This document shows, in pieces, positions 2 through 31,182 of a stretch of DNA of 32,143 nucleotides. The stretch lies in IMG/VR virus record IMGVR_UViG_3300045988_128600. One strand, written 5' to 3'. Below the pieces are notes generated by a model. That model had not been told where the DNA came from. It did not search any database and was given only the letters and a program-made list of their open reading frames with translations. The translations under genes were made by a program, and so were the position numbers. The DNA comes from a virus. The first letter of the stretch is position 1. The number at the start of each line of letters is the position of its first letter.

Positions 2-3000
2 AATGGAACTATAACAGTAGATTAGTTCTTGAAAAAAGTAAATAATGTTGTCACTAAAGAAAATTTAATGGCTGATGCTACATCTAAAGCAGCAACTGTT
101 CTCGAGGATGACTTTGGTAAAAAAGTTAAAATTAACGGTGAGGATTGTCAAAAGCTTGCTGAAGATATGACTGAAGTTATTGTAACAACAGATAAATTAA
201 AAACTACTAATAAGCAAGTTGCTGGGTCTTATGAAAAAATAAAAGCTGCAATTGAAAATTATAAAAATGCTACTGGAGATTTAGGGTAGAAATTAATTTC
301 TATGGTTAATGGTTTTTCTTCATTGGCTATGGGATTGGCTTCCATTAAGAGTATTTTTGATACTTTATCTGATGAAGATATGTCATTTTTTGATAAATTT
401 TTATCAGTTAGTATATCTTTAAGTATGGGTATTTCTATGACCATTTCTGGCTTATCTACTATGACTAAAGCTTATAAAGAATTGGCAGAAGCTAAAACTT
501 TAGATAATATAAAGACTTCGCTTAATACGGCTATTACAGAAATTAATAATGTGGTAAAAGCTTAGGCAGCCGCCAGAACAGGAGCTCAAACAGCAGCTAC
601 AGATAGATAGGCATTGGCTGAAAGCAAACTTACAAAAAATATAATATTGTAGAATGCCGCTTGGTTAGTCCGTAATAAACAGATGTCCGCAACAGCAGCT
701 CTTGGATTAAGTTTAGCTGGTACTATATTAGTTGTAGTTGCAGCTGCAGCAGCTTTAGTACTTATATCTAAAGCAGTTTATAATTCTATTCATAAAGAAG
801 AAATAGCGGCTGAAGCAGCAGCTAAAGCGGCTTCAGATCTTGGTAATGCTTATGATGAGTGTCGTGAAAAGTATCAGCAAATGATTGATGAGTTTAATGA
901 ATATAAAGATGCCATAGATGCTTTGGATAATTTAACTAAAGGAACTCAAGAATATCGTGATGCTTTAGAGGAAGCTAATCAAAAGGCTTTAGAATTAATC
1001 CAAAATAATCCTGATAAATTTAATAAAGATGATTATTATTGGGATGATAATAAATTAGTTATTAAAGATACAGCTATGTCTCGTGTAGCTGAAACCAGTA
1101 GACAAGAGACTGTAGATTTATAGGCTACTTCTGCTATGGCTAATGCCAATAATGCTCAAGCATAGGCAAATTTATAGAAAAAAAATCTTGTCGATACTGT
1201 TACTGGTTCTTTACGCAACACAACTGGCGTAGATAAAACTATTGATGCTTATTTAAATAGCGATAGAGTTGCTGTTGATAAGGAAGATTTAAAAGATATC
1301 CTTAATCTTGATAACGATATAGATGATAAGGCTTTAGTTAATGTCCTTTGGCGCAATATTGATGCTTTAAATGAGTTAAGAAATACCATGGATGGGGTTG
1401 AAACCTCTTTTGATCTTGCTAGTAAAACCGCTGCAAGAGCACAATGGTCCGGATCTGGTAAAGAAAATACTAAAGCTGGAAAAATGGCGCTTGAAGGTGG
1501 CGGAAGATTATATAATAATCTTTATGCCGAGGGAGAAAATACTGTTAAAGGTTATTCATTAAGCACTAATTGGGCTGCTTATGAAAAAATGAATAATTTA
1601 AATTCTCTAAAAGGATATGAACGTTCTATTAAGAGCGATAAAGTTGAATATAGCTATTATGATGAGAATGGTGAAAAGATAACTTAGGAAATCAATAAAG
1701 AAGCTATTCAAATCGCGGCCGCAACCCAATATGCTAATGATAGAATTGGAGAAGCTTTAGATAGCTTATATCAAAATATTGCTAAAGCTAATAAAGATGG
1801 CCTTGATAGTGTAGGGAAATATTTATCAACAGAAAATTTTGATAATATGACAAAAGGCGAGCTTGAACAATTTTAGGGATTAACTGATGATTAGTTAAAA
1901 GAATATGGAATTGATAAACAAGCTATTGAAGAAGCTAAGAAAGTTGTATTTGATGAAATTGATGGTCTTAATGAAGCTATGAGCGATTAGATCACTGTTG
2001 GAGTGAATAAGACTTTAAAAGAAAATATTTAGAATTTTGGCTCTGAAGGTAAAGATGCCTATATTAGTGCTATCAATCAAATTGGTGAATCTATTGATTG
2101 GAATGCTTTGTCTCCAGAATCTTAGGCTGAAGCTTGGAATAAAATTTCTAATATTAATTGGTTTGATTTTGATGCTCAACGTCAAGCTGAAACTCTAATT
2201 AAAGAAATGGGCGGAGATGTTTCTGTTCTTGGAGATAATTGGGATAAAGCTTTTAGCTAGATGCGCAAAGCTGGAGATGTCGTTCCAGTATTAACTGATA
2301 TCAAAGAACGCCTTGATAAAATAGATAATATTACTAAAGATATGAAAATCGGTAAGATTTTAGAAAAAGAAGATTATGATACTTTAGTAAATTATAATAG
2401 TGAATTGGCAAGATATTTTGCTATTTTATCTGATGGGTCTGCTGTTTTTGTAGGTGATCCTCTTGATTTTCAGTAGATGGTTAAATCCACTAAGCAGGAT
2501 GAATTAAGTAGAACTATAAGTGGATACCAAAATGCTATTGATTAGTATTATGCGGGAGCTGAAGAACTTAAAAAAGCGGGTGGATTAGATTAGATTCGAG
2601 AAGCTGGTTCTGAAAATGTTAATAATCAATTAGCATTTTTAAAGACTTAGAATTATGATGAAACATAGATCTCTGATTGGATTGGTAAGCTTGCTAATTC
2701 TAGAGGATAGGATATTGACACTTTAAAAGCTATCGCTGAAGCAGTTAATGAAGTTGGTGACTCTTTCTTATCTAGCAAAGGTAATATAGAACAATATACA
2801 GCAAGTAGTCAATAGGCTATGAATGAATTGGCAATGACCGCCGACACTGCTCAAGAAGCAGAAGAAATGCTTAAAAATGGCGGTATCAATGAAATGGCTT
2901 ATAATATGAGTGCCATGCAGCGTATGTCTAGTGAAAAATGGGGAGATTTAGATCCTACTGAAGTAAACAAGTATGCTGACTCTTTGATGAAAACTGCTAA

Positions 3001-6000
3001 AAAATCTGAGTTATTAAGTAATGAGCTTGAAAATAATAAAGAAGCTGCTGAAGACGTTGCTCTTTATACCATGAAGATGAATAATGGTATAGAGAAATTA
3101 AGTGATAATTTTGATGGATGGGCTAATGTATTAAAGAAATCTGATTCTGCTTCACAAGAGTATTATGATGCAATGGTTGATATTAAAGATGCCATGTCTA
3201 ACGTTTTAGGTGTTTCAGAAGAATTTTTAAGTGATGATTTTATTATCAATAATTTAGATGATATTGCATTAGCGGCAAATGGTGACGCTGAAGCTATTGA
3301 TCGTTTAGCTTTAGCAGCCAGTAAAGATATTGTTATAAACTTAGATTTTGAAGATGAAACAACAAAACAAGAAGTTTTAAGTTTGTATGATGATTTGATG
3401 GCTGAAATGCCCGATCTTGAAGTTGGAGCTACTTTAGATGATAAAGAGTTCTTAACAAAACTTAATAATTTTGTAAAACAATCAGGAATGAGTGTTGAAC
3501 AAGCTTAGGCTTTTTTCAATAGTTTGGGATATGAACCAGAATTTGTAACAGATACAAAAACTGTAAAAAGAAGTATTCCTCAAGAAAGAACTCATACGGA
3601 TTATGAAATTACTGACGGAACTATAGATATTTTAGGGTAGGAATGGCACATTCCTACAATAGACAGACTTACAACTACTAGTGTTAGTGATTACGTTGAT
3701 GTAGATGAAAAAATTCAAGTTCCTGCTTTTGGTACAGATAATCCATAGGTAAAATCTTTAACTAAAAGATCAAGTGGAATAATGAACAATTTTTCAAGTG
3801 CCAACCCTGGAGCTAAAGGTTCAGGAGGCAAAGGGGGAAGTAAAAATAAGCCAACCAAAGAAGCTCTAACTAAAAAAAGCGATGTTGTTGATCGTTATAA
3901 AGAAATTACTGATAATATCAATGATACCACTCGTGCTTTAGATAAAGCTAATAAATCGGCAGATAGACTTTGGGGTAAGGCTCATCTTGATGCGATGGCT
4001 AAAAGTAATAAATTAACTTTAAAAGAAATTGATTTATTAAAACAAAAGCAAAAAGAAGCTTAGGCTTATTTAAAGACAGATAAAGCTACTTTATAGCAAG
4101 CTGCGAAAAAAGCTGGAATTACTTTCACATTTGATGAAGATGGTGACATTTCTAATTATACTGATTAGATGACTAAACTTTATAATTAGCTCATAGCTGC
4201 TTAGAATAAAGCAAATTCTTTTTCTACAAAAGATGCTCAAGACGCTTATAAAGAAGCAACTTTAGATCCGATTCAAGAGAAAATCAATGAGTTGAAAGAT
4301 GCTATTAAGCAATATGAAGATACAAGAGATTTAGTCGAAGAATTAACTGATGATATCCAAGATAAAATAAACGAATGGCAAGATAGAAATTATCAAATGC
4401 TTACTTATGAAGTTGAAATAAAGGTTCAATTAGATGAAAATGATACTAAAAAATTAGAATATTATTTTGATAAATTAAGTAATAATATTTATAAAGCCGC
4501 TGAAGCTCTTGGATATTTACAAGGTCAATTTGATCCAGTAATTAGTCAATTAGGAACTTATGAGAATTTCTATAGTCAGTTAAATAACGCTTATTCTAAT
4601 GGAGAAATTTCTCAAGAAAATTATATCGAAGGCTTACAAGACGTGTATGATAATACATTAGATAATTTAAATGCTTTGTAGGATTTAGATAAAGAAATGC
4701 TTGAATATTATGGTAATACTATAGATTTAGCAAATGATGAATTGTCTAAATATACAGATCATATGGAGCATTTGACTAGTGTATTGGATCATTATCGTTC
4801 TATTATTACTTTGTTAGGTAAAGATAAAGATTATGATAAAGTTTTATCAGTTTTAAATGGAACTGCTTAGACTAAGAAAAATAATTTTGATACTTCTAAA
4901 CAATGGTATGAAAGCTTGAAGCGTGAACGTGATGCAGCGGCCGCAGCTTTAGCCAGTTCAACTGATGAGGCTGAGCGTGAAGTGCTTCAAAAGAATTATG
5001 ATGCTATATTAGCTGCATTCGATGAAGCGGAAGAGGATATGCTTTCTAAAGCTGAAGAATATGGCGAAGCATTAAAAGAAATTCTTACTACAAAGATGGA
5101 GCAAGCTGCGGATGAAATGAATAAGCAATTAAGCACTACTAAAGTAAGTATTAATGGTAATAACTTTAATATTTCTGGTTGGGATGCTTTAAATGATGCT
5201 TTGGATAGAATGTCTTCTTATCAAGATGAATATTTAACAAAAACTAATTAGATTTATGAAATGAATAAACTACTTAATAATGTTAATTAGGCTATTGATA
5301 AAACAAATAATCAAGCAGCTAAAAATAGATATCAGCAATTTACTAAAGAGATTGAATAGTTAAGAGATAAAGATAAATTAAGTCAATTAGAATTAGAAAT
5401 TGCTTAGGCTAAATATAAAGTGCTTGAAGCGCAAATCGCGTTAGAAGAAGCTCAAAATGCAAAGTCTACAGTTAGATTACAACGTGATAATGAGGGTAAT
5501 TTTGGTTATGTGTATACCGCAGACCAAGAGAAAGTAAATGACGCGCAATAGGCTTTAGCAGACGCGGAAAATGATTTATATAACATTCGTCTTGATGCGA
5601 CAAATAAATATGGTCAACAAAAACTTCAATATGAGAAAGAGTTGGCTGAAAAACTTGCGGAACTTGATTAGAAGGCTGCGGAAGACGCGGTTTATCGTGA
5701 GACTACATATCAACAAGAACGCGCATTAGTAATTCAACAATATACTGATTTAATTACTACTGCTGGAAACCTTTACGCGAAAGCGCAAGAAGAGGATAGC
5801 AGAGTCGTTCAAGATGCTTGGGTAAATTCTTTTGATATTATCAAAGATAATAGTAATAGTTGGAAAGATACTATTACTGAAAATACTAATATTATCAATG
5901 ATACATTTAAAGAATGGCAAGACAGTATGGATGAAATTAGTAAAATTGTTGGTGATGATTTAAAAGATACTCAATAGAAAGTTAAAGATGTTACTGATGA

Positions 6001-6766
6001 AAGTAATAAACTTTATCAAGAAGTATCTAATAGAGTTATTCCTGCTCTTGAAAGCGAGTTAAGTTCTGTCCGTAGTGCTACTGAAGCTTGGGCACAACAT
6101 CGTCAGCAATTACTTGATACTATTAGAGCTTATGAAGAGCTTTTGAACGCTATTCAAGCGACATTGCGCGCTTAGAGCGGATTTGGTAGTAATAGTGATG
6201 AAGATACTGACTGGGCGGCTATGATGGGTACTGTGGCTTATGGTTCAGCAGAATATAATTAGTATAAAAATATTCGTGATGTCAGAATCGCGAATGGTAA
6301 AAAAATCAATTATGATACTACTGCTAGAGTTGATGCTTATTATAAATTATTAAGTGAAGGAAAAATTTCAGGTTTGCCGAATGGGAAATAGAATTTTACT
6401 CAACTTACTGATGAAGAATGGCGAAAACTTGTTGGATTTAAAAGTGGTGGTTATACTGGCACTTGGAATGATGATGGAAAATTAGCGTTCTTACATTAGA
6501 AAGAATTAGTTCTTAATGCTGATGATACAGAAAATATGTTAGCTTCTATCCAATTAGTTAGATAGATCGCGAAACAATTAGATTTCAATAGTCAACAAAT
6601 TTCTACTCTTTCTTCTTCTGGATTTACTGTTAGTTCTCAAGATGGAACATTAGAATAGAATGTTAGAATTGAAGCTAATTTCCCGAACGCTACTGATAGA
6701 TATGAAATTCAAGAAGCATTTAATACATTGGTTAATGTAGCTTCTCAGTATGCCAATAGAAAATAA
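2..6766 (+). CDS. Tail tape measure protein, 5'-partial (at least 2255 codons), translated with TAG as sense
   Basis: Frame 2 is open from nt 2 to the TAA at 6764-6766 with no TAA or TGA; only in-frame TAG codons occur (e.g. 23-25, 287-289, 563-565). The track ORFs 29, 302, 683, 1388, 2261, 2819, 3782, 4292 and 4916 are all frame 2. It has hydrophobic TM-like segments (683-790, 302-470) and Ala/Glu/Lys/Gln-rich coiled-coil. The C-terminus reads GGYTGTWNDDGKLAFLH(Q)KELVLNADDTENM, typical of siphophage TMPs, and a terminator follows directly. Confidence 0.8.
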
Positions 6767-6772
6767 AATTAA

Positions 6773-6808
6773 GGGTGAAGTCTTATGGGCTTCACCCTTT
6801 TTCTTTTT
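6773..6808 (+). terminator. Rho-independent terminator after the tape measure gene
   Basis: GGGTGAAG (6773-6780) pairs with CTTCACCC (6790-6797) around the loop tcttatggg. A T-run tttttcttttt follows, 6 nt after the TAA stop. Confidence 0.7.
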
Positions 6809-6867: not shown

Positions 6868-6878
6868 AAGGAGGGATT
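6868..6878 (+). promoter_or_regulatory. Shine-Dalgarno (AAAAGGAGGG) for the TTG-initiated gene at 6882
   Basis: aaaaggaggg lies 4-6 nt upstream of TTG 6882 and there is no ATG alternative in frame. The same AAAGGAG-type SD recurs before genes at 10309, 10487, 15664, 18373, 18969, 20749, 28801, 30490 and 31183. Confidence 0.7.
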
Positions 6879-6881
6879 ATT

Positions 6882-9800
6882 TTGGCTGATAACGCACTAA
6901 ATATTCAAGAAAGTTTATGTCAAGCAATGAGTATTATTGCTAATTCAAGTGTTGATAAAGTTAAATTTGATAGTACCATTGAATGTACTATTATTGATGC
7001 AACTGATAAACTTATTGGTAAGTATAAGGTTAAAAATGAATCTTATGCAGAATTTTATGCTTATTCCCAAATAACCACTTATAACAAAGGCGATAAAGTG
7101 TATGTATAGATTCCAAAAGGAGATTATAATAGCACTAAATTTATTGTCGGTAAAAAGACCGATAAAAATGAAGATAAACCATATAATTTTGTTAATCCTT
7201 TTAATACTTTTATTGATTTAACTGGTAATTTCTTTATTGCCAAAGATAATAATAAAGAAGTTTGGAGTATCTTAGCTAATGGCAATGAAGAGGAAATTGA
7301 AATTACTCCAAATGGCGGAATTACCTTTACTGATGAGCAATAGGGATGTACGCGGTTGGGGCTGCGTGCCGATTTCCGCGCCTGGCTTGAAACGCTCGGC
7401 GTAGTAAGTGGTAATTATGGATTAAAATTAAATATATATGGTATTAAAGATGATACTGCGGACAATATTAAAAAAATAGAAAATAGTATTAAAAATAATG
7501 GAGAAATCCCTTTAATTGCATCTATTGACTTAGATACTAATGATATGTATGGCAATCCTTATAATTTTGAAGGATATTATTCTCAAGAAATTGTTATTGA
7601 TACTAGCGCAGTAGCTAAAATATATAATATAAAAATATTTTTATATCAAAAAGGTAATTTTAAAGATAGTAATAATAATTTAATTAGTTATGCTAATGAT
7701 TTCAATATGTCAATTCCGCCTAACAATATCTTTGTAAAAGATATATACATGGGACTGGGTATTTCCGCTGATGAGATAGAAAATGAATATGTAAGATTGT
7801 ATTCATTAGATGGAAGCACTTATGTAATTGATGATAAAGGTTAGATTGATTCTAAAACTATTAAATTGAAATGGGTTCATTTTGATGAAGATGGCAATAG
7901 AGTTCAAATAACTGAGCATAAAAAAGATGATGCTTTTGAAGTTCGTTGGTATATGTATGAATTTGGAGCACCATCCGCGGACGAATATTCTGGTGTCTAT
8001 TGGACTGCGATTGAGGATAATAAAAATAATTTTTATTATTAGCTAAAACCGCGCTCTAATAAAAATCAAGAATAGGTTAAAGTAATTATTTTATATAATG
8101 GAAAAGTTTATAGAAGTAATATAATTACTTTTAATAATGAAAAACAAGTTCCTAATGATGCGACTATTGATAGCTTAAATGCTTTATCTATTCATTGTGA
8201 AGATTAGACTAATGGTAATTATTTAATTTATAATTAGGCTAATTATTTGATGAATAGATCAGATGGAAAAATTAGTCGTAAATTAACTTTACATTTTGAT
8301 TCTAAGACTTATGCTATTAATAATGGCATAATTGGTAAAAATTAGAATGGAGAAAGTAAATTAGTTGAAGCTTAGAGAGTAATTTGGCAGATTCCTATTA
8401 AGAATACTATGCTTAATTTTGGTATTAAAGATGATGGAACTGATGCTACTTATAAAGAAATTATTATTGATTTAACTAATGAAAATGTCAATGTTTCTCC
8501 TGGAGAATTTTCTTTAAATTATACTATTAATACTTTTTATAGTAGTAATAAATCTAATAATACTGTAATTGCTAAAGTAGAAAAAGATGGTATTGTTTAT
8601 ACCGCCATTAAAGATTTCACTTTTGGATAGGCAGGAACTAATGGTACTGACTGTACTTTAGTAATTGATATGATAACTCATGAGAATTTAAATAATAAAA
8701 TATTTACTGCTATAAAAAGTGGAGTAAGAGATAATTATACTTTTAGAGCTTAGTTATATGATAATGAAGGTAAAGAAATCGCTGATTTTAAAAATTGTAA
8801 TTGGACTTGGAGTTTTATGACTGGATCAACGGTTAATAATGTTGATTTATAGAATACTAATAATTAGAATTGTGCGTTAAGGGTTAATACTACAAACTCT
8901 ATAATGAATAATTTAATTATTTTATAGGTAAAATTATCTGGTTGGGGAGATTATGATTTAACTGCTTATTATCCAGTTCCTATTACGACTTTAGATAATG
9001 CTTATATAAATGGTCCAACAGAGGTAATTTATTTAAGTAATGGCGAACCTGTATTTTCTAAAGAGCCTTATAAATTATTTATAAATGGGGAAGTAGATGA
9101 AACTGCGACTTGGAGTATTTATCCCACTGGGTCTACCGATAAATTTATTGGGTAGATTAAATATAATGATAAGAAAAAAGAATATAGATTAAGTCCTATG
9201 AATTTTTATGTTGATGGTGTAAGTACTTATGGAGTCCAAGGGAAATAGGGAAGCAATGTAGTTTGGAGCCAACCTATCTTAGTTGTTTAGAATAAATATC
9301 CATCAGCAATGGTAAATAAATGGGATGGATAGTTAAATATAGATAGTGATAATAATTTTATCGGTGTTGCTTAGATCGCGGCCGGTAAAAAAGAAAATAA
9401 TAATACATTTACTGGTGTCCTAATGGGGTCTTTTGGTGATAGTAATGTTGATAGTAGTCTTAGTAAAAACACTGGTGTTTATGGATATTATCAAGGTAAG
9501 TAGGTTTATGCTTTAAAAGATGATGGAACTGCAACATTTGGTAAATCTGGAAATGGTTAGATTGAAATTAAAGGCGATTCTGGAAAAATAAAATCTGCTG
9601 GTTATGATAATGGTAATGGTCTTTTAATTGATTTAAAAGATAGTAAAATAGATGGTAAAAGTAATAGCAATAGTGTTTTTTTATTAAATAAGACTAGCCC
9701 TTATTTAAAAATTACTGATCCAATTAATAATGTAATTTTAATGAATATTGGAAGCGATAGTTATTATTTACAATCAAAAAATTACACTTCTTCTACAGGG

Positions 9801-10289
9801 ACTTATTTTAATTTAGCAACAGGAAATATTACAACAAACAGTATTACTGTAAATAGTGGAACATTTAAAGATGATATTATTATTAATTATACAGGTAGTA
9901 CTGGTAGCGGATGGACTTATGGAGATCAAAGTTTAAATTATATTTTAGATTAGATTGGAAAAGCCGCCAAAGAAGCTAGCGATTTGGCAACAGCTTCTAT
10001 CACATGGACTCAAGATATAGCTAATGCTTAGACAAGAGCAGACGAAGCTATTAACCAATTAACATATGTAAGTCAAATTCTTAATTATAGAAATGGGTCA
10101 GGAAATATTTATTTACATTATTGGAACCAAGAATCTAGCGCTAGATTTGTTGTTTAGAGCAATGGAACTGTCGGTATGATAGGAGGTACAGGGTATTATT
10201 TAAATGTAACTGATAATTCTATTTATTTACGAGGTCCAGTTGTAATAAATGGTTCATTAACGCTTAATGGAAAAGAAATTACTGGTTGA
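6882..10289 (+). CDS. Large tail-tip/baseplate structural protein (1135 aa; Dit/Tal-position gene), TTG start, TAG read through
   Basis: Frame 0 is continuous from TTG 6882 to TGA 10287-10289 with about 25 in-frame TAG codons. The track ORFs 6882, 7356, 8409 and 9741 are all frame 0. It sits directly downstream of the TMP with a strong SD. The sequence is Asn/Thr/Gly-rich and beta-rich, and the C-terminus reads IYLRGPVVINGSLTLNGKEITG. Confidence 0.75.
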
Positions 10290-10486: not shown

Positions 10487-13366
10487 ATGGTTAATAAATT
10501 ATATCCACCTATTATATCTGGAACTTTACCAGCATTTGTTGGATAGGAAATTGCTATTCCATTTCAAATGAATCGTGCGGTTAGTATGGTAGAAGTTTCA
10601 GGATTGTGTTATATAATTAAAACAGTGTCAAGTAATGTCGTAATTGCTTAGGGGACAACCGCGGATTTTACCCCAAGCAAAGTCCGCGGTTGCTTAGAAC
10701 AAGGGTTTATTACTTTCAATATAAATCTTAAATCAATTACTAATAATGGAAAACCTATTCAATATAAATTGAATCCAGGTTAGTCTTATAAAATTCAATT
10801 AGCATATATTAATACTAATGGAGTAGTCGGATACTATTCTACAGTTGGTATTGCTAAATGTACGACTAAGCCCGCAGTTTATATAAAAGGTTTTGAAAAT
10901 AATTTAGTAGGAATAAATAAAATAAATTTTATTGGAGTATATAGTCAAAAAGAAAAAAATGATGATATTACTGAAAAAGTTTATTCATATAGATTTAAAG
11001 TATATGATGAAAATGGTAATATTTTTGCTGATAGTGGAGAACAATTACATAATTCAATCAATGACACAGAATTAAATGAAAGTTATGATAGTTTTGAATT
11101 AAATAAAGAATTACAAAAAAATAAAAATTATTTTATTCAATATTCTATAACCACTATCAATAACTATGAAGCAGAAAGTATTCGTTATCAAATTATTAAT
11201 AGAGAAACTATTAATCCAGAATTACAAGCGACTCTTTCTGCGGTTATGGATGAAAATAATGGGTATGTAAAAATTAATTTAAATGGAATCCGTGATAAAA
11301 AGACAGGATTAGAAATTCCCGCGACAGGAGCTTTTGCTTTATTAAGAGCCAGTAGCGAAGATGATTTTAATACTTGGAATACAATATTAAAGTTTAAATT
11401 AGTTGGTGAAACTCCTTCAAGAGAATTGTATAAAGATTTTACTGTTGAGCATGGATTTAGTTATCAATATGCGGTATAGCAATATAGCGATGAAACCGCG
11501 GTCCGCAGTAATAAAATTTTCTCTAATACGATATATAGTATTTTTGAAGATAGTTTTTTATACGGCAATGGACAGTTATTAAGAATAAGATTTAATCCAA
11601 AAGTAAGTAGTTTTAAAATCAATACTCTTGAAAGTAAAACTGACACTATTGGAAGCCAGTATCCTTATATTTTCAGAAATGGAAATACTTATTATCACGA
11701 ATTTCCCATAAGTGGTTTAATTTCTCACCTTATGGATGAAGATCACTTGTTTATAGATAAATTGGGCGATGATGAAATTAAAGATTTTACATCAACTGAT
11801 TTGACTAACTATAATATTAATATAGAGCGTCAATTTAAAACTAAGGCTTTAGAATTTTTAACTGATGGAGAACCTAAATTATTTAAGTCTCCAACCGAAG
11901 GAAATTTTATTGTACGTTTATTAAATGTGAGTTTAAGTCCAGAAGATAAATTAGGTCGTATGCTTCATACATTTAGCGGAACCGCTTATGAGATTGACAA
12001 AGTTAGTTTTGATAATCTTACTACTTATGGATTTATTGATGCAAATCCACCTGAAAGTGAAATTCTTAAATGGGATAGTGTATCTTTTGATGGATGGTAT
12101 AAAATTACTGGCTATATTGATGATGTAAATACCTATATTGATAATTTAAAAGATGAAAATTTAACTTAGGCAGAAATTAAGAAATTACAAGCAAATAAAC
12201 AAACTTGTTTAGATAATTTATTACAAACGTTAAGTTTTTATCCTATGTTTGAATTACTATATAATGGAGACCATTATAGCTTATAGACTAAAGATATCTT
12301 GGCTAATTCTCCTGCAATAACTATTCGATTTGAAGGTTTTGCTCCTGGAGATAAATTTAATGTTGATGGAGAAGAAATTGTTATTGGTATTACAGGAGCT
12401 TATTTAATAGATCATGTAGCTCCTATTCATAGTGTAAAAATAATTGAATTATCCGACGTAGGATTACAGCAAGGAACTATTGTATATTCTTATTATGGTA
12501 AACAAGCAAGTAAATTTGATACTATTAGTGATATTCAAGTTGCTGACTTACCTTTAGAGCAATATTATGGCACTGAGGGTAATATTTTAAATCTTTACAA
12601 TGATAATTTCAAATATAAAATCACAAAAATTTATTTCTTGCGTTTTACGAAGCGTGAAGTATAGAAACTATATACTAATAATAGAGTTAATTTTTATATA
12701 GCTCCTGATAGGGTATTGGAAGATAATAATTATACCATGGAGATTAAGCGTGAAGATTTTGATCCAACTTTAATCTATCATGTGTATGTGGTTAAAGAAA
12801 ATGAAGAAAGAGATTATTACATTGATGGTTATACTAAAAAAGAAATTTATGATTCAGGTATTTTAATAGATGAGAAAAATTGGGCCTGTAATATTAGAAT
12901 AAATGAAGATAATAAATAGATTATTGGTATAGACCATAAAAATGAATATCAAATAAAAGATTTGACTGATATTACTTCTATTGAAATTGATCCGGGCGTT
13001 TTATGTGAATTGTCAGTACAACGTCAAGAAGTAGTTTATTCTTTTGAAAATGATAATCAAACTACTTATAGAATTTTTAATGGATAGACCTATACTACAA
13101 CGACTATTTATCAATTAAAGCAAAATTGGTTAAGAGCTAAAAAAGCTTTAAAAGATTTTAAAGAATTAGAACAAGATAAAAGTAATCCTGACTTCTCTAA
13201 CGATGATCCATTTTATAATGTAAATCAAAATAATATTTAGGATTGTATAAAAAAATACAATAGAAAAGTAGCAGAATTACAAAAAACTATAGATGAAACT
13301 TATGCTTTATTCATTGATACTTTAAGAAAGGCGGTAGAGGATTATGAAGACTCAAAGACAATATGA
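10487..13366 (+). CDS. Large baseplate/tail structural protein (959 aa), TAG read through
   Basis: ATG 10487 lies 5 nt after the SD AGGAGGG. Frame 2 is continuous to TGA 13364-13366, with the track ORFs 11246, 11732, 12299 and 12716 all frame 2 and in-frame TAGs at e.g. 10544, 10649 and 11479. It contains a motif LFKSPTEGNFIVRLLNVSLSPEDKLGRMLHTFSG that recalls baseplate hub/tail proteins. Its end overlaps the next gene start by 23 nt. Confidence 0.75.
10656..10692. repeat. GC-rich 10-bp perfect inverted repeat (CAACCGCGGA ... TCCGCGGTTG) inside coding sequence
   Basis: 10656-10665 is the reverse complement of 10683-10692, with a 17-nt spacer. Both arms contain CCGCGG. It lies inside the 10487 gene in an otherwise AT-rich context. 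Confidence 0.6.
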
Positions 13367-15650
13367 TACCGACTTTCTTAAAAAGTTAGATGAATTTAAA
13401 CATAAAGTAGTTTATGCTCGTATTGAGCTACTAACATTTGATGAATTACCAATAGAAAGTATAGAGGGTAAGATAACTGGCGGATCAATTAATATTGATG
13501 GAACATCTGCGGTCCGCCGGTCTTGTTCTCTTACTATGGCCACGAATGAGAAATTATATAAACAATATTCTTGGGGTTTAAATTCTAAGTTTAGTTTGGC
13601 TATTGGATTAGAAAATAAAATTGATAATAAATATCCAGATATTATTTGGTTTAATCAAGGTATTTATTTAATTACATCTTTTAATACTTCTCAAAGTGCT
13701 AGTTCATATAATATCTCTATTCAAGGTAAAGATAAGATGTGTCTATTAAATGGAGATTTAGGAGGAGATTTACCTGCTTCTGTAGATTTTGGACAAGAAG
13801 AAGTAATTACTTATAGTTATAATAAACAAAATAGTATAACTAAAGATAATTATATAAAAGGAAAATATTGTTATATTGTTAATAGTGAAGAAGAAGCTAA
13901 AAAACATAATATTTATTATATTTCTACTTAGAATAAACAAACTACTTATTATGTTTTAGATGAAGAAGAGTTTAGTAATAAAGAGTATTATTTAAGGGAG
14001 AGTTATTTGAATTTAATTTCAATTCCTATTTAGACTATTATTAAAAAACTTCTTACAGTTTATGGCAAAGAAAAAGAAAGTAATATAATTATTAATGATT
14101 TAGATCAATATGGTTATGAGCTATTAGCTAATAAATGTGATGAAACTATGTATTTCTTTAAAGACGCGCAAACGAATAGAATAGTTAATGCTTCAATAGG
14201 GACAATACCTACTTTATTAGATATAAATAATAATAAAATAACTGATATGAGTAGTATTAAATTCGATAATTTAGATAGTAATAAATTATTAGATGACATT
14301 TCTGAACCGACTAAAGTAAGGCTGGTAAATAATGGAACTATTTACACTATTATAAGTCGAATAACTAATGAAACAGTTGGTTATCGTATTTGTGATTTAG
14401 TCTATGCAGGAGAACTTATTACTAGTGTTGGTGAAAATATAACCAGTGTATTAGATAAGATTAAAAATATGCTAAGTTGTTTTGAGTATTACTATGATAT
14501 AGATGGTAGATTTATTTTTTAGCGAAAGAAATTTTATGAATATTAGTCTTGGAATAATATAGTAAATAATTCTAATGGAGATAGTTATATTGAGCCTGCG
14601 GTTTATTCTTCTTCTTCAATTTATTCTTTTAGAGATGGATAGACGGTTATTTCTTTTAATAATACTCCATAGATTACTAATCTAAGAAATGATTTTTCTA
14701 TTTGGGGATAGAGAGAAAGCGCTAGTGGGACAGAAATCCCTATTCATTTAAGATATGCAATAGATCAAAAACCTATTCAATATACCACAATTATTGTGAA
14801 TGATAATGATATAAATAGGTATAAATCTACAATGTATAATAATGATATTTTTGATACTATGAATCTGCAATTAGAACAAAAGACTTATAAAAACAAATGG
14901 TATCAAAGCGAAAATGAACCGGGGGTTATTTATTGCGATTGGCGTGAAGTTTTATATCGTATGGCTGTAGATTATTATCAATATAATTATGCAGATGATT
15001 TTACTAGTAAAGTGGCAACCGCTAACCCTGATTTCTATCCTTCTGGAATAACTGGTTATGAAACTTATTATGTAGATTTATTTTCTTTTTGGAGAGATAT
15101 TTATGATTATGATAAGTTAGATTTTAAAGAAGAAGTAAAGAATAATCCTGAAAATTTAAATTTTTGGTTTGATTTTATTGGGGAAGAAAATGCGGATATT
15201 GCTAAATACTCAGTTCAATTAATCGGAGATAGAACAAAAGCAATTAATGATACTAATATAAAAGTTATATGTTATAGAGATACACCTGATGTATTATTTA
15301 TGACATAGACAGATTATGATTCTATTATTTAGAATAATTATCCAACAGAAAGTGGGTATATTTGGATTAATATTCCTTCTGGATATGATAATTATTTTAA
15401 AATTAGTTCTAAAGGTAAGAGCGCAGTTGATGAAATTGAAGATTTACTTTATACAACAGCTTATTGTACGGAAAGTGTTTCAATTTCTACTATTCCAGTT
15501 TATTATTTAGAGCCTAATAATAGAATTTACATTGAAGATAAAAGAAGTGGCGTTGAAGGAGAATATTTAGTTAATAAAATAACTATTCCATTAACTTATA
15601 ATGGTTCAATGTCTATTAGTGCCACCAAAGCAATATCAAGAGTATATTAA
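13344..15650 (+). CDS. Minor structural / tail-associated protein (768 aa), TAG read through
   Basis: ATG 13344 is preceded by the SD aaggcggtagagg. Frame 0 is continuous to TAA 15648-15650, with the track ORFs 13344, 14148 and 14796 all frame 0. The C-terminal part (YYLEPNNRIYIEDKRSGVEGEYLVNKITIPLTYNGS) resembles phage minor structural / tail endopeptidase-family C-termini. Confidence 0.75.
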
Positions 15651-15663
15651 GGAGGACCACTAA

Positions 15664-16008
15664 ATGGCAAGAAAGATAAGACAAATTCGTTATTATGGTG
15701 AAGGTCTTAATTCTAAGAACTATCCAAGTGATGTTAATATGAGTAAATTAATTACAGGAACCGCATTTAAAAATAATAATCAAAATGTGTTGATTACTCA
15801 GTTGGGTATTTAGACTTTACCAGGAACAAAATTTTATTTGAATGATAGTGCTAATGCTATTATTGTTGGAAATACTGGCATTTATGAACTAGATTTAGAA
15901 GGTATTTCTACTATTAATTTAATTAAATTTGATAGAAGTTCTATGAATTTGATTAATCAAAATAAAGAAGCATATCTTATTATAGATTATTTATTTGAGG
16001 AGGGTTGA
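15664..16008 (+). CDS. Small hypothetical structural-module protein (114 aa)
   Basis: ATG 15664 lies 7 nt after the SD AAGGAGG. It has one in-frame TAG near 15811 and a TGA stop at 16006-16008, followed directly by a TAA and the ATG of the next gene. Confidence 0.6.
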
Positions 16009-16010
16009 TA

Positions 16011-18284
16011 ATGGGTTTTTATGGTAATATAACTAATACTTCAAAAACAACCTTCGCTTTTGATAGAATTTATAATAATAGACTTCAAATGGATAATAAT
16101 TGTGCTAGCGATGGAGTGTTTTTAGGTCGCTATGTTTTAGTCGAGTATGGTCTTCCAGCTTCTTAGTATATAATAGGCTATCTTGACAATAATGGGAATA
16201 TGTATGATGATCCTACTGATAGAAGTGATTCTCATATTATTTTATGCGAAAAAGGAAAAATGGTAAAAATTAGTAAAAGTAGTTATTGGTATTTATATAC
16301 GGGAGATATCAAATCTGATGGGTCTCCGTATTGGAGATATCTTACTAGAATTACTAATGATAGAGTTGATGATGAATAGTATAATAAAAATTATCAAATA
16401 GATTATCCTGTTTATGGACGAGGATATGATTCTACTGTTTGGATAAAACAATATATTAATAATCAAGAAACTTATATTTAGATTGCTGAATTAAATACCG
16501 TTGTTCCAAATTTTTCAATTTATCCATTGCTTCCTCAAGACCCATATGTTGCGGTTGATAACGCTAGTATTGTATATCAACCAGGTAAGTATTATTATTA
16601 CGATGAAACTGATAGTCATTATAAATTAGATAATAATGATACTAAAACTGAGGGACGTATTTATTATTTAGAAAGTGAACTTGGACCGGCGATAACCACG
16701 GATCAAAGTAGCACAAATTTACTTTATAAATTAAGAGTTCCCACTAATTTCCAGCTTGATTTAGATGATAATAATATCTATTATAATAAAGAAGGATTTA
16801 GTAAGATAAAACGTTCTTATGATAGTATTACAGAAAATAGTATTAATTATAAATTAAGTCAGTCAGGATATAAATTTTATTATAATGTAGAATAGGATAA
16901 TGTTGTTGGTGAACCGATTGAAGATGGCTATGACCGCAAATCACTTGTAGTAAAGCTTCCTGCTCTTGGTAATGTGGTATGTGAAACTTATGATTTACTT
17001 TATGGCCAAAATCGTAATGATTCTGTTACTAATTTTGATAAAACTAATGTTAAGGGAGCTTTAAATACTCTTAATAAAAAAATGAATTTAGAAAAATTAG
17101 AGACTAATAAACTTATTTACTTTTCTACTGAAACTGACAATGATATTAATGACAATTATATAAAATCTGCAACTATTTAGGGAGATAATCTAATTTCAAT
17201 AAATGCAGATATTGAAAAAAATGGTGGAGCTATTAAAATTACCCATAATAATTTAGATGTAAATAAAGCATCAAAAAGCTATGGTAAAGATGTTGATTTT
17301 AACACTTTTGGTTCTTCCATTACTTTACCTAAATTATTTACTGATAGAGCTGGGCATGTTGTAAAAGAAGAAACATTCTCAGTTAGTATCCCAAAAGGCT
17401 CTTATGAAAATACTAAAGAGGGTAATGTTCTTACTTCTTTAAGTTTTATTGATACTACTGGAGCTTTAAGTAGTGAGAAATCTTATTTAGGGACTTTAAC
17501 ATTAGGAACTGGATATACTACTAATGATAAATTAAATACTATCACTAAAGATACAACTCTTAATGATAGTATTAGTAAGTTGATTGACAATAGCGATAGT
17601 AAATATAATACTTTATTAGGTCAAACTAATAATAGTTTTGGCAAAGACACTGTTCCAACTCTTTATGGCTTAAGACAAGGGATTAATAGTGATAGAGATA
17701 GTATTAGTAATTTAAGTGATAAAATTGATATTTTAAATGGAACTGTATCTACTACTAATTCTGTTGCTTATAGTATTAAATAGGCTATTGATAAATTAGA
17801 TAAAATTGATAATAAAGTAGACAAACAATTTGTTACAGCGGTAGAAGAAAAAGATGGTTTAATAACTGTTTCAAGAAGCGCCTTACAAGAAAGTGATTTA
17901 CCTATTACTTTTGATGGAACTTATAGTAATAGTAATAAAGTTGCTACTATGAGTAGTTTAAATACTTTAAAAGCAAATCTTTTAGGTGATTATACTGGTA
18001 CATTAGCTGATGTAAATACATTAGCAAATAGTAAATTAAATGAAAGCGCGGTGCGCAGTCTTACATATAATGCGACTTCTGGAAATAATGGAGCTAAAAC
18101 AATAGCAGAAATGTTTGATTTAATTGTAGAATTATAGAATAAAAATACATAGTTAAATACAATTATCAAAGCCTTATAGAATAAAGATATTGAATTAAAT
18201 AATTTAATTGTTGGATTAAGAACTGATGTTGATGCTTTAAAAAATAGCTCAAATAATACTGATACTCCATCTGAAACAACTTAA
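16011..18284 (+). CDS. Tail fibre-like protein (757 aa) with a C-terminal coiled-coil, TAG read through
   Basis: ATG 16011 is translationally coupled to the upstream gene. Frame 0 is continuous to TAA 18282-18284, with the track ORFs 16527, 16974, 17580 and 17949 all frame 0. It has Ser/Thr/Asn-rich beta segments and a heptad-like C-terminus (LNTLKANLLGD...ALQNKDIELNNLIVGLRTDVDALK). A terminator follows. Confidence 0.7.
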
Positions 18285-18291
18285 TTTAAAT

Positions 18292-18325
18292 AAAAGGTTT
18301 GGTCTTAATAGGCCAAACCCTTTTA
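18292..18325 (+). terminator. Rho-independent terminator
   Basis: GGTTTGG (18296-18302) pairs with CCAAACC (18313-18319), with a further possible C:G pair inside, then TTTT. Confidence 0.65.
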
Positions 18326-18372
18326 GTATTGATTAAAAAGATTTTATAAATAATAGAAAGGAGTCGATTATC

Positions 18373-18954
18373 TTGCCTAATACATTAAATAAATATGTAA
18401 AATTTGTCAGAGGTTCTAAAACCGCTTTTGAAAATTTAGGGACGAAAAGAGACAATGATACTTTATATTTTATTTATGGAGAAAATGATTCTTCTGGAGA
18501 ACTTTATTTAGGTAGTCGTCTAATTTGCGGTGGAATTAGTTCCGCAGGTAAGTTAAGCGATTTAAGTGATATTGTTCTTAATGAAGTTAAGACAAATCAA
18601 GTTTTAATTTATAATGAAGAACAAAAGAAATGGGTTAATTAGGGTTTAGAAAATAATGAGACTTTAATTAATTCTATTGTTGAAAAATTATCTACAGAAG
18701 AAAATTTAGCTAAATTAGCTCCTGTTTTTAAGGGCACAGTCCCAGGTTTAGTTCCAGTTTCTTTACATGAAATTAAAGGAGAACATATTCTTACTGATGC
18801 AGGTACATGGATTAATATGCCAGTAGGAACATTAACTTAGGGAGATATTGAAACAATTAATATAGCTAATAAATATTTAGTAGATAAAGGTCCTGATAAT
18901 TTGGTAACTCGTGTTGAAGCAGTTGAACAAACTGTTTCTTGGACTGATATTTAA
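18373..18954 (+). CDS. Small fibre-associated protein (193 aa) with the shared N-terminal anchor motif
   Basis: TTG 18373 lies 9 nt after the SD AAAGGAG. It has one in-frame TAG at 18640-18642 and a TAA at 18952-18954. The N-terminus VKFVRGSKTAFENL...LYFIYGENDSSGELYLGSRLI resembles the common phage tail-fibre / Mtd-N-type N-terminal domain. Confidence 0.65.
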
Positions 18955-18968
18955 AGGAGTGAAAAAAA

Positions 18969-20630: not shown

Positions 20631-20691
20631 GGGCAATACTATTTAATAATAAATATAATTTTTTCTATTTTATATAGAAGAATGTTTTTAT

Positions 20692-20728
20692 GGGGAAAGA
20701 TGAAATATTCTTTCCCCATATTTTTTTT
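20692..20728 (+). terminator. Rho-independent terminator
   Basis: GGGGAAAGA (20692-20700) pairs with TCTTTCCCC (20709-20717) around the loop tgaaatat, followed by an 8-T run. Confidence 0.7.
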
Positions 20729-20748
20729 AGGATAGAAAGGAGTAAATT

Positions 20749-28494: not shown

Positions 28495-28503
28495 GGATAA
28501 ATT

Positions 28504-28704
28504 ATGGAAAAAGAAATTGTTTATAGATATATGGGTTCTAATGGTATTATTGAATCTTCTATATAGTTGACAGGAATTCCTGCGACTACTTTGTATAGAT
28601 TAATAGCAGATTACAATAAGAAATTAACGAGAGATGGAAAAGAATTTTTTTCCATCTCTCCTTTAGTCCCTGAAAGTGAATTAAAAGAATGGTATGAGGT
28701 TTAA
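28504..28704 (+). CDS. Small protein (66 aa) with a helix-turn-helix-like segment
   Basis: ATG 28504 follows a weak SD (tgagga). It has one in-frame TAG at 28564 and a TAA at 28702-28704. The segment IQLTGIPATTLYRLIADYNKKL resembles an Xis/AlpA/MerR-type HTH. A strong terminator follows. Confidence 0.5.
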
Positions 28705-28740
28705 ATAGGCCAGAATACATTGATTTAAATATAAAAAAAA

Positions 28741-28782
28741 TTAGGTTAAATAGGAAAAGAAACTATTTAACCTAATTTTTTT
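28741..28782 (+). terminator. Strong rho-independent terminator, possibly bidirectional
   Basis: A perfect 13-bp stem, TTAGGTTAAATAG (28741-28753) against CTATTTAACCTAA (28763-28775), with the loop gaaaagaaa. It is flanked upstream by an 8-A run and downstream by a 7-T run. Confidence 0.75.
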
Positions 28783-28800
28783 AGAAAGGAAGAGATAGAT

Positions 28801-30477: not shown

Positions 30478-30489
30478 GAGGTAAGATAA

Positions 30490-31110: not shown

Positions 31111-31120
31111 ATAAACTAAA

Positions 31121-31160
31121 TGGTATAGAATTATTAATTAATTCTATACCATTAATTTAT
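31121..31160 (+). terminator. Hairpin terminator
   Basis: A perfect 12-bp inverted repeat, TGGTATAGAATT (31121-31132) against AATTCTATACCA (31140-31151), followed by T-rich ttaatttat. Confidence 0.6.
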
Positions 31161-31182
31161 AGAAAGGAGTTATTGAAGATCG

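Follow-up and report, generated by a model that had tools for sequence, protein, structure and literature searches.

Phages lambda, TP901-1 and TM4 are established systems in which a tape measure protein (TMP) acts as a ruler. In TM4, a 114-aa deletion in the TMP, for which a loss of 17 nm was predicted, shortened the tail by about 20 nm (PMC1796659), and SPbeta has a non-contractile tail of 320 nm (PMC8270828). The SPbeta-type ruler, YomI, has 2295 aa in vB_BsuS-Goe11 (Spbetavirus; genomes of about 126-134 kb) and carries PF10145 together with embedded SLT (1425-1533, 118.9 bits) and Peptidase_M23 (1579-1674, 103.7 bits) domains. Cultured Enterococcus phages (VRE9_1-4, EF1, EF5 and H1; 134-142 kb) use the standard code and have no in-frame TAG in the TMP, which is annotated at 2673 aa in VRE9_4, and the phiCD5763/LIBA2945 group has been described as siphoviruses without sheath genes. 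The longest known tails, at >800 nm, belong to Thermus phages P74-26 and P23-45 (PMC9022992; PMC10034513). The phAss-1 group consists of human-gut phages recoded from TAG to Gln, with TMPs of 3149-3209 aa, which were taken to be siphoviruses that probably infect Clostridia (PMC10607447). Both the long-TMP family and TAG-recoded gut phages with TMPs of this size are already known, and the locus described here adds a member.

The locus lies at the start of a 32,143-nucleotide stretch of virus DNA (IMG/VR record IMGVR_UViG_3300045988_128600), the whole of which we call the window. Our reading is that positions 2..6766 hold part of the TMP gene of an uncultivated gut phage of ~190-197 kb with an SPbeta-like virion module, in which TAG would encode Gln and the tail would be long and non-contractile. 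We hold this explanation with high confidence, as a single judgement on the whole that takes in the Gln assignment, the morphology, the tail length and the dependence on a suppressor tRNA. We document here the open frame, its recoding, its status as a single gene, its TMP family membership, the SPbeta-like synteny and the length distribution of the family.

Results

The tape measure gene and its downstream neighbours

On the plus strand, frame 2..6766 translates as 2255 codons, namely 2254 sense codons and a terminal TAA, with 45 in-frame TAG, no TGA and no TAA besides the terminator (Table 1). The first-pass annotation had described an ORF open from the window edge to 6766 and encoding at least 2255 aa; the long open frame stands, with a product of 2254 aa, since the stop codon had been counted. 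It had also regarded the N-terminus as missing, and the window indeed aligns from residue 715 onward of full-length relatives, its residues 1-2254 being collinear with residues 715-2971 at 89.5% identity to L003 and 91.3% to P0009, the latter a 2971-aa product independently called as one gene by the public collection. Collinear relatives that are ~90% identical have TMPs of 2971-2974 aa, and in all relatives the gene starts at a conserved ATG, which is preceded by a GAAAGGAG Shine-Dalgarno and has a stop a few codons upstream. Judged by these relatives, ~714 N-terminal codons would lie outside the window, the complete TMP would have ~2970 aa, and the window would contain the 3' three-quarters of its gene.

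Table 1. Features of the window, with positions counted from its first letter.
Feature	Position	Strand	Basis or remarks
TMP gene, C-terminal 2254 codons	2..6763	+	open frame, PHROG 4211, collinear relatives
Variable central 'spacer' of TMP	2..3853	+	window aa 1-1284, ~residues 715-2000 of full protein
45 TAG codons read as sense, most likely Gln	23..6658	+	first 23-25, last 6656-6658
Moderately hydrophobic segment FLSVSISLSMGISMTISGL	398..454	+	Kyte-Doolittle scan, peak 1.55
Strongly hydrophobic, membrane-helix-like segment …AALGLSLAGTILVVVAAAAALVLISKAVY…	680..790	+	Kyte-Doolittle peak 2.63; window aa 227-263
Conserved C-terminal TMP module	3854..6763	+	window aa 1285-2254
C-terminal motif GFKSGGYTGTW…GKLAFLH(Q)KELVLNADDTENM	6422..6571	+	common to SPbeta-group YomI and other Bacillota-phage TMPs
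TMP stop codon TAA	6764..6766	+	
Intrinsic-terminator-like hairpin, 13-bp stem and T-run	6771..6808	+	directly after TMP stop
First gene 3' of TMP, ~1135 aa, 24 TAGs	6882..10289	+	TTG start, AGGAGG at 6869-6874
Tail-module gene, 959 aa, PHROG 30026	10487..13366	+	E 2.4e-11
Tail protein, 768 aa, PHROG 32343 / PHROG 1887 'tail protein'	13344..15650	+	E 8.3e-45 and 1.7e-10
Rest of tail/adsorption module, eight more ORFs	15664..32143	+	ORF map
TAG-free ORF	18969-20630	+	
2581-aa giant ORF	20749-28494	+	PHROG 14959, E 5.9e-52
Fibre-like ORF running off window end	31183-32143	+	PHROG 2710 'tail fiber protein', E 6.8e-5

The hairpin behind the TMP stop was the one terminator found by a scan in which 0.1 were expected (folding energy -19.5 kcal/mol, z -3.9), and its stem is kept just past the TMP stop in each relative that has it, amounting to 12 TMP-centred loci, with 4 further overlapping loci re-sampling the same region of some of those 12 contigs. 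The next gene is 84-89% identical in relatives and matched neither Pfam nor PHROG; its position makes its product a candidate tail-tip or fibre-type protein, and in L036 a weak precomputed match to Peptidase_S74 falls on its homologue. The PHROG 30026 gene is 89-98% identical in relatives, and on the remaining tail/adsorption ORFs Pfam gave nothing above sub-threshold matches. The downstream tail module had been thought unusually large; it is large, but normal for the lineage, as VRE9_4 illustrates.

Identity and parts of the protein

Within the window, PHROG 4211 ('tail length tape measure protein') matches TMP residues 1537-2224 (E 5e-11), while a full-length relative matches PF10145 (94.9 bits against a cutoff of 33.2, aa 197-404) and full-length relatives match TIGR01760 (101.6 bits, aa 157-501, and 123 bits, cutoff 28.8); P0009 also has a precomputed PF10145 match. 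Together with the placement of the gene after tube and chaperone genes, these matches bear out its initial naming as a TMP. The TP901-type core is not in the window itself because the corresponding region lies upstream of base 1, and its presence in the window's protein is probable from full-length relatives that are 89-91% identical.

No Pfam domain reached its cutoff on the window's own 2254 aa, where sub-threshold matches (POTRA_TamA, SUS_EPBD, Gifsy-2 and PAH) were rejected as chance noise. Embedded peptidase or transglycosylase domains, which the first-pass annotation had proposed to look for, were not detected by Pfam in the window part or in full-length relatives. Likewise, the N- and C-terminal TMP profiles had no sequence relatives among solved structures, and the sole tandem repeat in the gene was a trivial two-copy one of 22 nt. 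As a structural proxy we used an AlphaFold2 model of P0001, which is 91% identical to the last 692 aa of the window TMP. The model contains ~78% helix, with helices of up to 160 residues, at a mean pLDDT of 55 (low confidence), and proline makes up 0.8% of the window TMP. At this low confidence the model suggests a mostly helical, extended protein, which with its hydrophobic segment would have the features of the TMP family.

The two parts of the protein in the window differ in conservation. Spacer identity is 85-96% within the L003 subgroup only, alignments to the other subgroups being partial and reaching 31% at most, whereas the C-terminal module is 80-97% identical across all close subgroups. 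This module matches 2693 library proteins at E<=1e-3, in almost every case at the C-terminus of the protein, and 887 clusters (<=50% identity) at E<=1e-30, and its motif is 60% identical to YomI-type proteins of 26 Bacillus phages (tblastn). The tail genes flanking the TMP are 97-98% identical to L001. The strongly hydrophobic segment keeps its position in all relatives, standard-code ones included, with counterparts at residues ~900-1100 of L001, L003, L020, L021 and L022. The full TMP would accordingly comprise a conserved N-terminus (MAKQLNSYQVNLQF…) with a TP901-type core, outside the window; a central spacer of ~1100-1300 aa, interchangeable in sequence and kept in length; one strongly hydrophobic helix; and a conserved, mostly helical C-terminal module of ~970 aa ending in a GGYTG…LHxKELVLNxxDT motif.

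As a separate observation, the central cassette of the TMP is replaced between otherwise near-identical relatives with the total length kept (2737-2974 aa).

Comparison with described phages

YomI and the window's TMP are both very long rulers, and L003 residues 135-501 align to YomI 330-687 (E 5e-27) over the TP901-type core, PF10145 being present in YomI and in the full-length relatives. A GGYTG…LHxKELxLNxxDTENM motif is also shared (L003 2858-2905 against YomI 2138-2185, 60% by BLASTP). Beyond core and motif no similarity between YomI and the window's TMP was detectable, and the latter is ~680 aa longer. Because the SLT and M23 domains went undetected in it and its relatives, which have PF10145 only, the protein resembles YomI as a ruler but, by its domain architecture, is not a YomI orthologue. 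The larger relatives (~190-197 kb), the recoding and the low sequence identity speak against placing the phage in the genus Spbetavirus, whose members are temperate Bacillus phages of about 126-134 kb with an arbitrium system.

The best GenBank phage matches were the TMPs of the Enterococcus phages, at 25-26% identity over 69% of the C-terminal 958 aa, while megablast of the window's first 12 kb gave no match to GenBank phages. The VRE9_4 TMP, which also has PF10145 as its sole Pfam domain, is similar at the N-terminus, the C-terminus and part of the middle, although it is ~300 aa shorter and identity is only about 25%. Its head-to-tail module is syntenic gene for gene by PHROG (35301, 4088, 30998, 3853, 31155, 6123, 4051, 2729, 30570, TMP), except for two extra genes between the chaperone-like gene and the TMP. 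PHROG 30026 adjoins PHROG 32343 in both phages, but the pair lies ~22 kb downstream of the TMP in VRE9_4 and directly after it in the window lineage. phAss-1 (proposed Phassvirus; OQ749652, 135,976 bp; NCBI 'Caudoviricetes code 15 clade') is likewise a recoded gut phage with a very long TMP, which matches that of the window at E 2e-27 (23.8% identity over 560 aa, 58% of the query); the genomes of its group are about 133-136 kb against ~192 kb here, and the two are not closely related. P74-26 and P23-45 would be built on the same principle, in that a TMP of great length goes with a non-contractile tail of great length, but their tails are about twice the length predicted here and they belong to an unrelated lineage with no sequence match seen.

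The first-pass annotation had called the protein exceptionally long, which holds against model phages only. Among 132 cluster representatives of its own family (>=2000 aa, sharing the C-terminal module, mutual identity <=50%), the median TMP is 2956 aa (IQR 2772-3087), and those of the phAss-1 group are longer still. A TMP of ~2970 aa is thus very long by textbook standards and average within the SPbeta-like long-tailed family.

Predicted tail length and ruler function

By analogy with the established systems, the TMP would lie stretched out within the tail tube as it grows and would halt tube polymerisation once its own length is reached. Using a scaling of 0.14-0.156 nm per residue, taken from other phages and calibrated on SPbeta, we predict a non-contractile tail of ~416-463 nm (roughly 0.42-0.46 micrometres) for the full ~2970 aa; the earlier figure of at least 340 nm is arithmetically correct for the fragment. 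A ruler function would find indirect support in the total length of the TMP being kept despite replacement of its central third, and the narrow family length distribution despite sequence turnover is as expected if length itself is selected.

The protein might be a genuine TMP and the tail still much shorter than 0.42-0.46 micrometres, were part of the TMP folded, cleaved or placed beyond the tube. Consistent with this, the low-confidence model of the C-terminal 692 residues leaves ~20% of them outside helices, short beta elements included, window TMP aa ~1150-1290 form a Gly/Ser-rich, beta-rich stretch, and we found no measured tail length in the literature for this lineage or for its cultured relatives VRE9_4, EF1 and phiCD5763, the phiCD5763 paper giving capsid size but not tail length. 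However, SPbeta, with which the virion module is shared, reaches 320 nm with 2295 aa even though ~250 aa of these form the globular SLT and M23 domains, the window's TMP gave no detectable globular enzymatic domain, and the family length distribution is narrow. We therefore consider a much shorter tail unlikely, and prefer a tail near the predicted length.

Upstream virion module and morphology

In the relatives the TMP stands between tube/chaperone genes and distal-tail genes, in the order YomU_Tube, a 368-aa gene, the YomO/PHROG 30570 gene in chaperone position, TMP and tail genes; the window itself supplies the downstream side. Directly 5' of the TMP (P0009) on a 192,383-bp contig, precomputed Pfam matches in L036/L037 name YonD_N, YonB, YomW, YomV_2nd, YomU_Tube and YomO (PF27290, PF27364, PF27256, PF27211, PF27173 and PF27287, the last weak), so that the virion genes upstream of the TMP fall in SPbeta-named families. 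The contigs of the relatives are about 190-197 kb; among the gemstone clades of Borges et al., Sapphire stands at 201±22 kb and Agate at 154±27 kb. A host scan against species-representative genomes gave one match, to a 15-kb, wholly phage, TAG-recoded contig in an Acutalibacteraceae MAG, and we consider this insufficient for naming the host.

PHROGs, local Pfam and precomputed Pfam revealed no sheath family in the 12 genes that precede the TMP, the VRE9_4 annotation from portal to TMP lists none either, and siphovirus morphology is the probable reading. That the phage is instead a myovirus, with a contractile tail whose tube length the TMP would still set, seems very unlikely to us: most upstream genes do fall in PHROGs of unknown function, and a sheath gene could lie beyond the roughly 12 kb upstream, but the run from portal through the MCP-like gene to YomW, YomV, YomU_Tube, YomO and TMP holds no sheath-sized or sheath-family gene, and the homologous modules are those of SPbeta (non-contractile) and the phiCD5763/LIBA2945 group.

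One gene read through TAG

The first-pass annotation had named two ways in which its reading could fail, separate genes fused by TAG read-through and TAG being a stop after all. Neither is the case, because standard-code relatives encode the TMP as collinear single ORFs, of 2960 aa with no TAG in L022 and of 2817 aa with one TAG in L021. Two or more genes joined in the 6.8-kb frame might have been suspected from an internal ATG at 68, just past the TAG at 23, and from the central region being swapped as a cassette between relatives. However, the context of that ATG (…KENLMADAT…) is internal to the 2971-aa product in relatives, and cultured VRE9_4 has one TMP CDS with the same end-to-end pattern of similarity. 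Furthermore, with TAG as sense the related loci contain no TAG-terminated genes and have a coding coverage of 0.94-0.95. With the standard-code homologues also against it, we regard such a fusion as highly improbable and the frame as a single gene.

Over the 2254 positions of the TMP stretch the two off-frames contain 101 and 380 TAA/TGA, and the absence of these codons from the TMP frame is far beyond chance. TAG occurs 45 times in frame against 66 and 45 in the off-frames, a similar frequency, so the reading frame shows no avoidance of TAG. With TAA and TGA as the only stops, the plus strand of the window contains 12 long ORFs with 136 in-frame TAGs altogether and a coverage of 95%, and no ORF of >=100 aa terminates in TAG, while under the standard code coverage falls to 59% and 31/33 ORFs of that length end in TAG. 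Among six collinear TMP sequences, 36/71 TAG columns are TAG throughout, and in the others the alternative codon is most often CAG (10/30) or CAA (8/30; 18/30 together). Likewise, Gln occupies 21.6% of TAG-aligned positions in standard-code relatives against a background of 6.7%. The claim that TAG is recoded is thus sustained by the rise in coverage, the CAG/CAA exchange and the uninterrupted standard-code homologues; comparison indicates that TAG is a sense codon in the window, and provides strong evidence that the residue is most likely Gln.

Dependence on a suppressor tRNA would follow by inference from the recoding; no tRNA was found in the window and 18 related loci, which cover the structural region (roughly 60 kb of ~192 kb), and in published TAG-recoded phages a suppressor tRNA is sometimes absent (PMC10607447). 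Although the standard code breaks the TMP frame into ORFs of at most 229 aa and this tRNA was not found, the idea that TAG is a true stop, the region being either a row of small genes or a remnant that has decayed or does not code, is already contradicted here by the missing TAA/TGA, by amino-acid conservation of 89-97% that continues unbroken through TAG positions in many independent contigs, by the TAG to CAG/CAA exchange and by the coding coverage, and can be set aside as next to impossible.

Discussion

The window's TMP does not overturn current understanding. For annotation, gene calling under the standard code shatters one gene of 9 kb into dozens of pieces, and a typical tail module reappears once TAG is translated as Gln. 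With in-frame TAG about every 50 codons, the ruler would be made only once TAG suppression is active, and the ruler, hence tail assembly, would require active suppression in the infected cell.

In the TAG-recoded ~192-kb branch, the major virion genes (capsid, tube and chaperone-position) are without TAG. That the most abundant virion proteins are TAG-free hints at a balance between recoding and translation efficiency.

A broader reading is possible, which we put forward tentatively and as one joint proposal, doubtful in its entirety. The phage might belong to a very large, almost wholly uncultivated radiation of SPbeta-like siphoviruses with a ruler of ~2.6-3.2 thousand residues and tails of ~0.4-0.46 micrometres clade-wide. 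The central third of the ruler would be a sequence-unconstrained spacer, swappable by recombination, and the code switch would gate or throttle tail assembly specifically and not late genes generally, the latter suggested by the ruler and minor tail proteins of the ~192-kb branch being TAG-rich and its capsid, tube and chaperone-position genes TAG-free.

The length-conserving swap of the ruler's middle amounts to a natural experiment in favour of the protein-ruler model. With the window, the 'big siphovirus' assemblage (SPbeta / phiCD211 / Enterococcus) gains a TAG-recoded branch of ~192 kb. TMPs of ~3000 aa are the norm in this assemblage, and tails near half a micrometre are therefore predicted to be common among gut Bacillota phages.

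Identity and completeness of the tape measure gene

[quoted passage not shown] Residues 1-2254 of the window TMP align collinearly over their whole length with residues 715-2971 in the TMPs of two close relatives, L003 (89.5% identity) and L012 (88.5%), and in the database protein P0009 (91.3%), an alignment that places ~714 residues outside the window and predicts a full-length TMP of ~2970 aa, incomplete in the window at its 5' end. The TAA/TGA-free run in the TMP frame spans 2737-2981 codons in all recoded relatives and 3308 in the related locus L020. In all relatives the TMP starts at an ATG behind GAAAGGAG, with an upstream stop no more than a few codons before it, and has a conserved N-terminus beginning MAKQLNSYQVNLQF. 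The window's ATG at position 68 lies inside the gene, in sequence that is mid-protein in the relatives.

The first-pass annotation had raised the possibility that two genes are joined in frame here merely by TAG read-through. This was tested and failed, as the TMPs of the standard-code relatives L021 (2817 aa, one TAG) and L022 (2960 aa, no TAG), whose loci have a coding density of 95-97% when read with the standard code, are single ORFs collinear with and homologous to the window TMP. TAG is almost absent throughout these two 20-kb loci, where it terminates none of the ORFs of 100 aa or more. AT-rich genomes tend to favour TAA, which could be enough to explain the scarcity, or the loci may be in a TAG-depleted state connected with the reassignment in their recoded relatives.

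The gene product is recognised as a TMP by the 2625-position profile of PHROG 4211 ('tail length tape measure protein'), which matches residues 1537-2224 of the window part (E 5e-11); Pfam found no domain above cutoff anywhere in that part. Full-length relatives matched PF10145 (L003, 94.9 bits; L022, 102.3 bits; cutoff 33.2) and TIGR01760 tape_meas_TP901 (101.6 and 123 bits, respectively; cutoff 28.8) at their N-terminus, which bears out the first assignment and, judging from these relatives, puts the canonical TMP core in the missing N-terminus. Our local Pfam-A copy is without newer families (PF27173 YomU_Tube, PF27364 YonB and others), and proteins of the related loci L036 and L037 that had no match in it do carry precomputed newer-family annotations, so negative results from it for phage structural proteins need care.

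Structure prediction for a 91%-identical proxy of the last 692 TMP residues gave ~78% helix, with helices of up to 160 residues, at a mean pLDDT of 55, a low confidence of the kind commonly seen when a TMP chain is modelled on its own. Proline content is 0.8%, and one strongly hydrophobic helix keeps its position in all relatives. We found no tandem repeats of note in the gene and no relatives of the TMP among solved structures.

Coordinates of features in the window and of TAG-free genes in the related locus L026
Feature	Position (nt)	Strand	Annotation
TMP gene, 5' part outside window	2-6766	+	PHROG 4211
Region replaced between TMP subgroups	2-3853		
Hydrophobic helix of TMP	680-790		
Terminator-like hairpin and T-run	6771-6808		
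TTG start of next gene	6882	+	
Tail-module ORF	10487	+	PHROG 30026
Tail-module ORF	13344	+	PHROGs 32343/1887 ('tail protein')
ORF	18373-18954	+	
ORF	18969-20630	+	
ORF of 2581 aa	20749-28494	+	PHROG 14959
ORF	28966-30477	+	
ORF	30490-31110	+	
ORF	31183-32143	+	
L026 TAG-free structural genes	2758-3675, 3693-4799, 8764-9762, 11166-11699		

TAG is read as a sense codon

Within the window the TMP frame comprises 2255 codons, the last of which (6764-6766) is TAA, and translation gave no TGA and no other TAA. The first-pass description of a frame free of TAA and TGA was correct up to this sole terminator, and its minimum of 2255 aa becomes 2254 encoded residues, one fewer. With 101 and 380 TAA/TGA codons in the two off-frames of the same interval, chance cannot account for an open frame this long. 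TAG occurs 45 times in frame against 66 and 45 times in the off-frames, and so is not avoided in the TMP frame. When only TAA and TGA were taken as stops, the + strand of the whole window resolved into 12 long ORFs with 95% coverage, all terminating in TAA or TGA, whereas under the standard code coverage was 59% and TAG terminated 31 of the 33 ORFs that reached 100 aa.

TAG accounts for 1.3% of the codons in frame and for a third of the Gln-type ones (TAG, CAA and CAG). We built a codon alignment of six collinear TMP sequences, from the window and five IMG/VR relatives (89-91% identity), and found TAG in 71 columns, 36 of which have it in all six sequences; in the variable columns the main alternatives were CAG (10 of 30 non-TAG codons) and CAA (8 of 30). 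Against two distant standard-code relatives, Gln occupied 21.6% of TAG-aligned positions versus a 6.7% background, with no other residue enriched. The full product is also stored independently in a public protein collection as one 2971-aa protein (P0009). These patterns of codon exchange indicate that TAG is a sense codon, most likely for glutamine, and the contrary possibility of TAG as a true stop, likewise tested, failed on the gain in coverage and on the exchange of TAG with CAG and CAA. No suppressor tRNA was detected in the window or in the structural region covered by 18 related loci.

All 12 window ORFs lie on the + strand, every 1-kb bin has a positive GC skew (0.11-0.33), and GC content is 25-34% (mean 29%).

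Exchange of the central TMP region

Identity between TMP subgroups is 53-68% over the N-terminal ~700 aa and 80-97% over the C-terminal ~970 aa. The central stretch of ~1100-1300 aa has essentially been exchanged, aligning in part only and at no more than 31% identity; despite this swapped middle, total length stays at 2737-2974 aa. The related locus L001 has flanking tail genes 97-98% identical to those of the window and a TMP middle at most 26% identical, and two further loci (L005 and L009) join an L003-like C-terminus to a different middle, a mosaic that indicates recombination inside the TMP gene. Such cassette exchange within the ruler, with length retained, is as expected if selection acts on length and not on sequence.

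Genomic context, tail type and host

Upstream of the TMP the relatives carry a head-to-tail module in the order PHROGs 35301, 4088, 30998, 3853, x, 31155, 6123, 4051, 2729, x, 30570, and this order is the same gene for gene in the cultured Enterococcus phage VRE9_4 (134 kb; annotated TMP 2673 aa). On the 192,383-bp contig encoding P0009, precomputed Pfam annotations upstream of the TMP are YonD_N, YonB, YomW, YomV_2nd, YomU_Tube and YomO, families all named for SPbeta virion proteins. No tail sheath family was found in scans of the relatives' modules with PHROG, local Pfam or precomputed Pfam; the related phiCD5763/LIBA2945 group has been termed 'big siphoviruses' without sheath genes, and the SPbeta tail is non-contractile (PMC8270828).

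Downstream, PHROGs 30026 and 32343 adjoin as in VRE9_4, and the remainder of the 25-kb module is mostly unannotatable; it is 84-99% conserved in close relatives and in the same order in standard-code L022. Its giant 2581-aa ORF contains 25 TAGs and matches a 2494-position profile of unknown function (E 5.9e-52), with a sub-threshold BspA-type LRR match near its C-terminus; the VRE9_4 tail module has a 2572-aa hypothetical protein (PHROG 33923). The ORFs at 28966 and 30490 have N-terminal regions similar by eye (HLAETIYFQIDRYFDLQDL versus HAAEIIYFEIDRYFDTMDL, NTLPAQMVINKTLDID versus NTLPASLQVYSKLNLD) and look like tandem paralogues with different C-termini. Also by eye, an N-terminal pattern (K/R)F(L/V/R)(K/R)G…F/Y recurs in the ORFs at 18373, 18969, 20749 and 31183 (KYVKFVRGSKTAFENL, LNVKFLKGSQAEFENV, MSKIRFRPVQGPEKK, MALFKILKGDSNNL), and may be a shared anchoring region of fibre-like proteins.

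A host in the Bacillota, probably the Clostridia, is weakly suggested by strong AGGAGG-type ribosome-binding sites, by virion-module homologues in phages that infect Bacillus, Enterococcus and Clostridioides, and by a recoded 15-kb contig, all of it phage, that was placed in the bin of an Acutalibacteraceae MAG.

Expression and uneven use of TAG

In the TMP gene TAG falls about every 50 codons, evenly spread, so no useful TMP product would be made without suppression, a need that accords with the published proposal (Borges et al. preprint) that late genes are gated by recoding. Five nt past the TMP stop lies a hairpin resembling an intrinsic terminator (13-bp stem, -19.5 kcal/mol, z -3.9), and at least 12 relatives have its stem conserved at this point. 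The hairpin implies a putative boundary in transcription, or a point of attenuation, where the ruler gene gives way to the distal tail genes. The next gene has its start preceded by AGGAGG.

The ORF at 18969 uses TAG for none of its 16 Gln-type codons (P=1.7e-3). In L026 the TAG-free genes are those for an MCP-like protein (PHROG 4088/YonB), PHROG 35301, the tube (PHROG 2729/YomU) and a protein in chaperone position, and favour CAG over CAA; in neighbouring minor genes TAG makes up 50-68% of Gln-type codons. This codon usage points to avoidance of the recoded codon in the most abundant virion proteins.

TMP and tail length within the family

We searched all 1.84 billion cluster representatives with the C-terminal TMP module; 2693 proteins matched at E<=1e-3, of which 887 reached E<=1e-30. 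Among the best 150 matches, 132 were at least 2000 aa long, with the module at their C-terminal end, and the shorter ones are probably fragments. These 132 proteins have a median length of 2956 aa (IQR 2772-3087, maximum 3506), among which ~2970 aa is the 52nd percentile. The TMP is exceptionally long, as first described, when set against model phages, but not within its own family. TMPs of 3149-3209 aa are already on record for TAG-recoded phages of the human gut (phAss-1; PMC10607447), and the phAss-1 TMP is distantly related to that of the window (E 2e-27).

The SPbeta tail is 320 nm long (PMC8270828) and its TMP, YomI, has 2295 aa in the SPbeta-like phage Goe11, giving 0.139 nm per residue, or 0.156 when the ~250 aa of SLT and M23 domains in YomI are left out. 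In TM4, deleting 114 aa of the TMP cost the tail ~20 nm, against a predicted loss of 17 nm (PMC1796659). On the SPbeta calibration the 2254 window residues predict a tail of at least 313-352 nm, a range that includes the earlier minimum of 340 nm, and the ~2970-aa protein would give ~416-463 nm (~0.42-0.46 micrometres). Siphovirus tails are mostly 50-200 nm, with a record of nearly 1 micrometre in P74-26 (PMC10034513; PMC9022992).

The TMP gene is real, was rightly read at first pass and is TAG-to-Gln recoded, and the phage that carries it stands among the SPbeta-like big siphoviruses, with precedent in recoded gut phages, and is no outlier.
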